Assembly: GCA_951406725.2 (NCBI GenBank)
Contig: OX597815.1
Location: 141,856,001-141,920,000 of the forward strand
Source of the DNA: Octopus vulgaris
Lineage: Eukaryota
DNA length: 64,000 nt
Direction: 5' to 3'
Positions within the stretch are counted from its first letter, which is position 1, and every line of letters starts with the position of its first letter. Below the pieces are notes generated by a model, which saw only the letters and a program-made list of their open reading frames with translations, made no database searches and had not been told where the DNA came from. Positions 38,991 to 39,181 of this stretch are shown piece after piece. The position numbers and the translations under genes were made by a program.

Positions 38991-39181
38991 GTAGGTCCCG
39001 GGTTGATTCGGGGTTAACCACAGTAAGTAAGGTACTCAATACATAGCAGAGTAAAATTAATTTATTATATAGAAGGAGCTTCTACAGGACTAGTACTGTT
39101 TCATTCAAGAGAAATCTTCAGGAAGATTTCTCTTGAATGAAACAGTACTAGTCCTGTAGAAGCTCCTTCTATATAATAAAT
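38991..39181 (-). mobile_element. Family X hammerhead repeat with a perfect 60-bp fold-back
   Basis: Arms 39060-39119 and 39122-39181 are exact reverse complements with a 2-nt loop. (TA)n on both sides. Confidence 0.9.
39079..39125 (-). ncRNA. Type I hammerhead ribozyme motif, intact core
   Basis: Minus strand: cttc CTGAAGA t-ttc-tctt-gaa-t GAAA cag-tactagtc-ctG TA gaag. Confidence 0.7.

Follow-up and report, generated by a model that had tools for sequence, protein, structure and literature searches.

Palindromes that turn inside a ribozyme motif raise the question of how they are made: does one reverse-transcribed strand fold back and copy itself, or are two strands made separately and then joined? 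The mirror-image feature considered here covers about 190 bases (38991 to 39181) of the window, by which we mean the whole 64-kb stretch of Octopus vulgaris DNA analyzed. Its exact reverse-complement arms of 60 bp (39060 to 39119 and 39122 to 39181) are separated by a 2-nt AG loop, as the initial annotation had described, and as RNA the hairpin would reach -96.8 kcal/mol (z = -24.6), a value equaled by none of 200 shuffles. Judged from its sequence and layout, the insertion is a very short head-to-head insertion of a Hydra-type Penelope-like retrotransposon in (TA)n. The locus by itself is ordinary debris; its value lies in the copy set to which it belongs, and that set makes it very likely that the palindromes were joined from two cDNAs.

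Positions with a sign are relative to the predicted cut between 39083 and 39082 in the minus-strand hammerhead motif; features are collected in Table 1.

Table 1. Coordinates of the 39-kb insertion, its targets and the two further family copies in the window
Feature	Position	Strand	Remarks
Left target, (CATA)n/(TA)n microsatellite	38957..38990	.	Last ATAT is also element sequence, so the exact joint is ambiguous
69-nt tail, between the two fixed element ends	38991..39059	-	On the left arm only
Long arm, +23 to -43 relative to the predicted cut site	39060..39125	-	Sense on the minus strand
Predicted 8-bp hairpin spanning the cut site, competitor of stem I	39068..39086	-	From folds
Type I hammerhead-shaped motif	39077..39125	-	From sequence and folds; stems invariant in 10 variants
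Inversion junction CTTC-AG-GAAG	39116..39125	+	4-nt microhomology 39122-39125 common to both arms
Short, tail-less arm, to +23	39122..39181	+	Starts at -37, or at 39122 with the microhomology; core broken (no C3-U4)
Right target, (TA)n	39182..39260	.	
Second family copy, other subfamily, short palindrome	56528..56715	.	Arms to -41 (tail arm) and -45 (tail-less arm, the longer)
Third family copy, third subfamily	3316..3456	+	Tail and hammerhead, to about -51

The minus strand carries CUGAAGA (39121 to 39115), GAAA (39102 to 39099), and GUA (39085 to 39083), the intact core named in the initial annotation, and the 5′ strand of its stem I (39125 to 39122) is the turning point of the palindrome, also as described there. 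The plus-strand arm lacks C3-U4, leaving an intact core on the minus strand only, and with a single intact core the locus would release no unit-length RNA. A core of CUGANGA, GAAA, and UH, three helices, and an open helix I correspond to type I. Stem I has 4 bp here (6 bp in full copies), stem II has 3 bp and is closed by U-U where a G10.1-C11.1 pair is expected, and stem III has 4 bp with a palindromic loop. Core and stems are invariant, and the sites that vary frequently are N7 and the loops of stems II and III; since the stems never vary, no covariation was seen in them among 10 variants. The Rfam hammerhead models gave no match at E ≤ 1 in the window and none at E ≤ 10 for the full motif. 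We describe the motif as hammerhead-shaped, with a predicted cut at 39083/39082. Once the RNA extends past +15, folding predicts the lowest energy for the 8-bp hairpin that spans the cut site; the same hairpin is the hot spot of single-arm lesions in short copies, and the 39-kb copy has no such lesion.

Exact-pattern searches of the 2.8-Gb genome returned 7,900 matches to the hammerhead part and 4,322 to the tail part, with none for the reversed controls, which puts the family at 4,322 copies at least. Sequence upstream in the long copies leads into an ORF on the hammerhead strand, and the tail of full-length copies runs on into the ORF leader and ATG. One copy has a 718-aa open frame starting just after the tail of an upstream repeat, and tandem units lie 5.2 kb apart. 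By eye, the ORF contains RWR, DKT, YRDD, a CNCHDKTTC linker, YIG, CDLC..E, and N..CMH; because these motifs match the published Hydra-clade definition and alignments by eye, the family is labeled Hydra, and a Neptune label was dropped on the same grounds. Pfam and PDB sequence searches with the 718-aa ORF gave no RT or GIY-YIG match, its Atlas neighbors carry GIY-YIG and RVT_1 at 0.96-0.97, and a single-sequence AlphaFold model (pLDDT 35) was left unused. A single ORF with RT and C-terminal GIY-YIG, linked to the repeat, is the arrangement of EN+ Penelope-like elements of the Hydra clade. pLTR tandems, an inverted 5′-truncated arm, a tail at one end, and a (TA)n target are likewise Penelope-like; the second end was read in 57 palindromes, and a second tail was present in none. 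With an RT/endonuclease ORF in the family, the earlier view of the palindrome as a retrotransposition footprint of a ribozyme-bearing RNA holds.

Two other class labels were rejected. A MITE (non-autonomous DNA transposon) does not suit ends that differ by a 69-nt tail, centers that vary, or a family with an RT ORF, and a non-LTR retrozyme does not suit a 39-kb locus that is a single inverted stub without tandem units with complete hammerheads. Tandem units of the retrozyme kind were found at two other family loci only. One (C2:64628300-64632215) is a head-to-head array of 277-nt units comprising hammerhead, tail, and ORF start, about seven per side, with a tail at one end only; it looks like rolling-circle copying from both target ends. 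The other (C5:37481400-37489000) consists of 19 units of 333 nt on one strand, facing at least 2 on the opposite strand; the first unit has a substitution at +4. In the handles used below for individual copies, these arrays are L176-L188 and L189-L203. A short palindromic copy (L153, C1:68813023-68813214) has inserted into a full-length family member, within its microsatellite-rich 3′ region, so the element carries its own targets.

For copy-by-copy analysis we took the first 100 exact tail-pattern copies of contig C1 and the three window copies (n = 103), a sample biased to young copies. The TATA test described below divides them into 30 long copies and 73 others; of the latter, 60 are short palindromes (about 58% of the sampled copies) and 13, with a single arm or a large insert, unparsed or long, were set aside. 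Two of the 60 represent one duplicated locus (L038), and L041 and L083 are misparsed by a few bases. Junction polarity and the base after -45 were both counted in this sample, not genome-wide. The 129-nt long arm of the 39-kb copy is letter-identical in 21 of the 103 copies. The variants that the initial annotation called copy-specific are therefore subfamily marks: they do occur in both arms and do differ from the 56.5-kb copy, but they are not specific to this copy, and arm identity is thus uninformative on its further claim that one arm was copied from the other. Within one copy, arms were identical over 30 nt in 38 of 48 cases, compared with 20% of between-copy pairs, a difference that fold-back of a single strand predicts as well. 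Under two-cDNA priming, arms of one subfamily mean that the two RTs share a single RNA or at least a single source locus.

Where the copies end bears on the template. In 31 of the 60 short palindromes the further-reaching arm ends exactly at -45, where stem I begins; it ends within -45 to -41 in 46 and beyond in 5; counted singly, 41 of 120 arms reach -45. This distribution is nonrandom with respect to the core, as the earlier proposal of a turning point in stem I would lead one to expect, and is better explained by an RNA 5′ end at the first stem I base than by stem I pairing. None of the 103 tail-anchored copies stops at the cleavage site, so their templates were uncleaved, as had also been proposed. 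All 30 long copies have TATAAA (once CATAAA) upstream of -45, its first base 29 nt away in 29 of them and 30 nt away in the other, across seven spacer variants. At no position of the box do more than 3 of 95 arms differ, compared with up to 36 at spacer positions. In Pol II promoters a TATA box precedes a pyrimidine-purine start by about 30 nt, which is the arrangement of these 29 long copies around -45. Other hammerhead families were represented by 21 dispersed matches, too few per family for the TATA rule.

The base that follows -45 is informative as well. In the genome it is T, C, or A. Among 59 short-class arms containing -45, 11 continue with the genomic sequence, 18 are set by a zero-loop junction, 5 are set by a 2-bp overlap, and 25 show C, although 19 of these 25 Cs could equally stem from the partner arm or from a templated insert. 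The remaining, unconstrained ends carry an antisense C (sense G) in six of six cases (L073, L021, L138, L084, and both arms of L139). An extra G at complete 5′ ends of L1 insertions has been read as a copied cap (PMC11702581), and the C at all six unconstrained ends is what a copied cap would give, pointing to -45 as a capped start. From these sequence patterns we consider it likely that -45, the first base of stem I, is the capped RNA start. The idea that most full-length copies begin there was rejected: only 1 of 12 ORF-linked copies (L204) starts at -43 to -45, and the other 11 run further upstream as partial tandems. Because these 11 extend past -45, long copies would need another template, such as read-through RNA, a circular form, or strand transfer.

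The main rival to a capped start is a splice acceptor at -45, as in Drosophila virilis. In its general form, this alternative keeps the two cDNAs and takes -45 as a processed RNA end, an RT pause at the ribozyme, or a 3′ splice site, with the C an ordinary untemplated addition; we judge it unlikely. It can point to the AG that precedes CTTCC in every long copy (YAG/CTTCC in all subfamilies), to the D. virilis intron, reported to end at the 5′ end of helix I (PMC4209133), and to the 11 ORF-linked copies that extend beyond -45. Against splicing, the 41 of 120 arms that reach -45 contain both the A and the G preceding the supposed acceptor, and the junctions share no exon-1 sequence beyond one C. 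The fixed TATA spacing argues for a start, and at an RT pause the partner of the 5′ strand of stem I would already have been copied, so no blocking structure would be expected. The D. virilis Penelope is described as having a TATA-less promoter, with a start 46 nt before the intron that ends at helix I (PMC4209133), a layout different from the TATA-bearing one of the octopus family. A start at the first hammerhead base, a cap-copied base, or breakpoints mapped there were not found in our literature search, to which most subscription papers, including the 2005-2006 Penelope reviews, were closed; PMC7353768 yielded no passage on a cap.

Whether one strand or two gave rise to the arms is decided by copies other than the 39-kb one. 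The initial annotation had read its cttc-ag-gaag junction as the sign of an antisense strand folding back on 4 bp and priming itself. A 4-bp overlap arises equally from fold-back and from two annealed cDNA ends, so this copy alone cannot decide. The same junction type occurs in 5 of the 103 copies and in both polarities: the tail arm is the longer in the 39-kb copy, L083, and L096, which belong to three subfamilies, and L019 and L092 are mirror cases. Of the 60 short palindromes, 24 have a longer tail arm, 20 have a longer tail-less arm, and 16 have arms of equal length (P = 0.65 for symmetry). In the 20 copies where it is the longer, the tail-less arm cannot have templated the tail. Among long copies the corresponding counts are 9 tail, 5 tail-less, 5 similar, and 11 unresolved, and at least one of these pairs (L099) is false, being two separate insertions. 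Eight of the 60 junctions have no loop at all and are perfect palindromes on AGCT. Two of 10 further loci from the hammerhead list, L226 (C1:19846900-19848100) and L228 (C1:28042200-28043400), have a tail-only arm of 28 or 53 nt facing a tail-less arm with which it shares no sequence. These are two separately primed cDNAs, direct products of twin priming.

Lesions within the hammerhead lead in the same direction. After 15 of 254 arms, from the two tandem arrays, were dropped, deletion of G+4 was found in 18 of 144 short arms versus 0 of 95 long arms (Fisher P = 8e-5) and deletion of G+1 in 10 of 144 versus 1 of 95 (Fisher P = 0.054). A lesion at +1 or +4 is present in one arm only in 20 of the 60 copies (7 in the longer arm, 6 in the shorter, and 7 with equal arms); the one copy with lesions in both arms, L092, lies outside the 60. 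As the lesions cluster at the competing hairpin, with some of them perfecting or deleting it, we read them as slips during copying. Template switching is known at quasi-palindromes, and fill-in after microhomology joining is error prone. Some of the lesions may be assembly errors: none appears among the variants of short-read contigs, where indels are undercounted (a subfamily indel is seen at 2%). An origin as scars of cleavage and religation is not supported, since the cut is the stopping point of none of the copies and most lesions fall at +4, at the loop of the competing hairpin. Six copies (L007, L087, L109, L117, L124, and L130) have junctions with templated insertions and double turnarounds, which we take to resemble polymerase-theta end joining.

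Self-priming of a single cDNA, as first proposed, would have one antisense strand fold on 1 to 4 bp near stem I and prime itself, with the endonuclease later trimming the tail at either end; we consider this improbable, slightly more so than a processed end at -45. Many junctions have workable geometry (20 of the 35 with overlap have 2- to 4-nt loops and 1 to 4 bp), both arms of a copy belong to one subfamily, with rare variants in common (L101 and L015), and the process has already been proposed for Penelope palindromes (PMC3846280). Trimming of a free hairpin at either end would, moreover, also give both polarities. It is already contradicted for part of the family by the nonoverlapping arms of L226 and L228, and it fits poorly with the 8 zero-loop junctions, with the 7 copies in which the longer arm alone has a lesion, and with DNA folding, which does not favor a hairpin with a 2-nt loop. 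The tail-less end, moreover, is fixed within a few bases of +23, so that the two fixed element ends lie 69 nt apart, and a fixed second end 69 nt in fits the two start sites reported in vitro (PMC11167929). We regard joining of two cDNAs as very likely for the family, and its combination with a capped start at -45 as the more probable case overall.

Joined in this way, the palindromes could be accounted for as follows. The TATA promoter of the terminal repeat would start transcription at the A of stem I (-45), and the element endonuclease would cut both strands in (TA)n. Each target 3′ end would then prime RT on the uncleaved RNA; the first of the two priming sites would be the tail site, and the second would lie 69 nt inward of it. 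Both cDNAs would run off the capped RNA 5′ end, often adding a C opposite the cap, and their 3′ ends, trimmed by a few bases, would anneal by 1 to 4 bp before fill-in. At the 39-kb copy, the long arm would have stopped 2 nt before reaching -45 and the short arm 8 nt before it, the two ends being joined through the 4-base microhomology.

Two further explanations fare much worse. The palindrome could be a small nonautonomous unit (MITE- or SINE-like) copied whole with its junction inherited, in line with the 60 short palindromes among 103 copies and the recurrence of a few junction types; each common junction, however, occurs in several subfamilies, in both polarities, and with or without lesions, junctions are diverse overall, and the same end rule holds in kilobase-long ORF-bearing copies, which makes this very improbable. 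Equally improbable is a fold-back chimera of sequencing or assembly: short-read contigs from four runs cover both flanks of the 39-kb insert with none bridging the (TA)n-flanked insert itself, and the +1/+4 lesions unseen in such contigs may be consensus errors in perfect hairpins, but family fold-back junctions of two common types are found as loose ends in contigs of the independent runs X1 and X19, and the copies end at fixed biological positions, have unique sequence on either flank, and turn at one site across subfamilies. The palindrome class is genuine; at the 39-kb locus, the palindrome is known from the assembly alone.

Published systems are compared here on the available passages of the sources cited. 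The origin of inverted ends and the role of the hammerhead in Penelope-like elements are stated there as open questions (PMC8557442 and PMC11167929). Closest is Hydra-1_Obim of the Hydra clade (Craig et al. 2021, PMC8557442), with which the family shares a single ORF of about 714 aa bearing RW(R), DKT, YRDD, CxCx5C, YIG, CxxC, and CxH, a terminal-repeat hammerhead, a (TA)n target, an inverted 5′-truncated copy, and a tail at one end. Compared by eye, its hammerhead and protein sequence are other than those of the octopus family, which is therefore a different one, with a 5.2-kb unit, a microsatellite-rich 3′ region, and a 69-nt tail versus 30 to 40 nt; the passages on Hydra-1_Obim in that source contain no map of inversion points or promoter. 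The anole Penelope protein is reported to cut and extend both strands in vitro, to use two internal start sites that bracket the tail, and to prefer uncleaved RNA, and it is predicted to be a dimer (PMC11167929). This element, PAc Poseidon (Frangieh et al. 2024, PMC11167929), thus matches our family in the cutting and extension of both strands, two RT starts, an AT-rich target, and uncleaved RNA, but belongs to another clade, and its ORF starts inside the hammerhead rather than about 140 nt after the cut site; the scenario in that source, as far as available, does not treat the joining of inverted arms or the RNA start.

The Penelopes of Adineta vaga (Arkhipova et al. 2013, PMC3846280) share head-to-head inverted pLTRs, a junction palindrome, an optional tail, and a putative pLTR TATA box. 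Their junctions were explained by self-priming on an antisense template, whereas the octopus copy set favors two cDNAs from sense RNA. In L1 twin priming (PMC11702581), too, a second target end primes a second cDNA, inversion junctions show microhomology, and complete 5′ ends have an extra G; the two L1 cDNAs cover adjacent parts of the RNA from a variable second start, whereas the octopus family has a fixed second start and usually two cDNA copies of one stretch of RNA. Non-LTR retrozymes (PMC7229834; 10.64898/2026.07.22.740005) are noncoding, have type I hammerheads, and are related to Penelope terminal repeats; the two arrays of the octopus family are like them, and the 39-kb locus has no tandem array. 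Inverted arms, tails, opposite-strand hammerhead pairs, and the self-priming proposal are thus already in print. The octopus family provides in vivo footprints that discriminate the published self-priming from two-ended priming. Its predictions, namely a single exact RNA 5′ end, a base copied from the cap, and two sites of priming, are open to standard assays.

A possible, tentative role for the hammerhead is that of a self-decapping switch. Cutting would drop a 45-nt capped leader and leave an end fit for circles or tandems, and capped RNA left uncut, because the hairpin over the cut site keeps the ribozyme off, would be copied twice, cap included, by an RT dimer working from the two ends of the break. 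If this is true, thousands of palindromes preserve, to the base, where the RNA starts, its cap, the two sites of priming, and the slips of the RT at the ribozyme, and these palindromes settle how Penelope inversions form.

The window holds three family copies, compared with none in 30 stretches covering the adjoining 300 kb (C2:141696001-141856000 and 141920001-142060000). The 56.5-kb copy has a deletion lesion at the cleavage site in its tail-less arm only, and no inverted arm was seen at the 3316..3456 copy. To the left of the 39-kb insertion, high-copy decayed repeats occupy 38300 to 38950, and contig loose ends suggest a DNA-transposon terminal inverted repeat, presumably Tc1/mariner-like, ending near 38950. 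Just before the 56.5-kb copy, a near-perfect palindrome of a different repeat (56216 to 56395) has 73-nt arms and an inner 18-nt palindrome; related sequence precedes a hammerhead-like motif in L166. Older palindromes at 57575 to 57718 (71 nt at 87%) and 60958 to 61120 (67 nt at 84%), beside simple repeats, are probably stubs of other families. A hammerhead-like motif of another family, with a 5-bp stem I, is present on the plus strand at 61917 to 61945.
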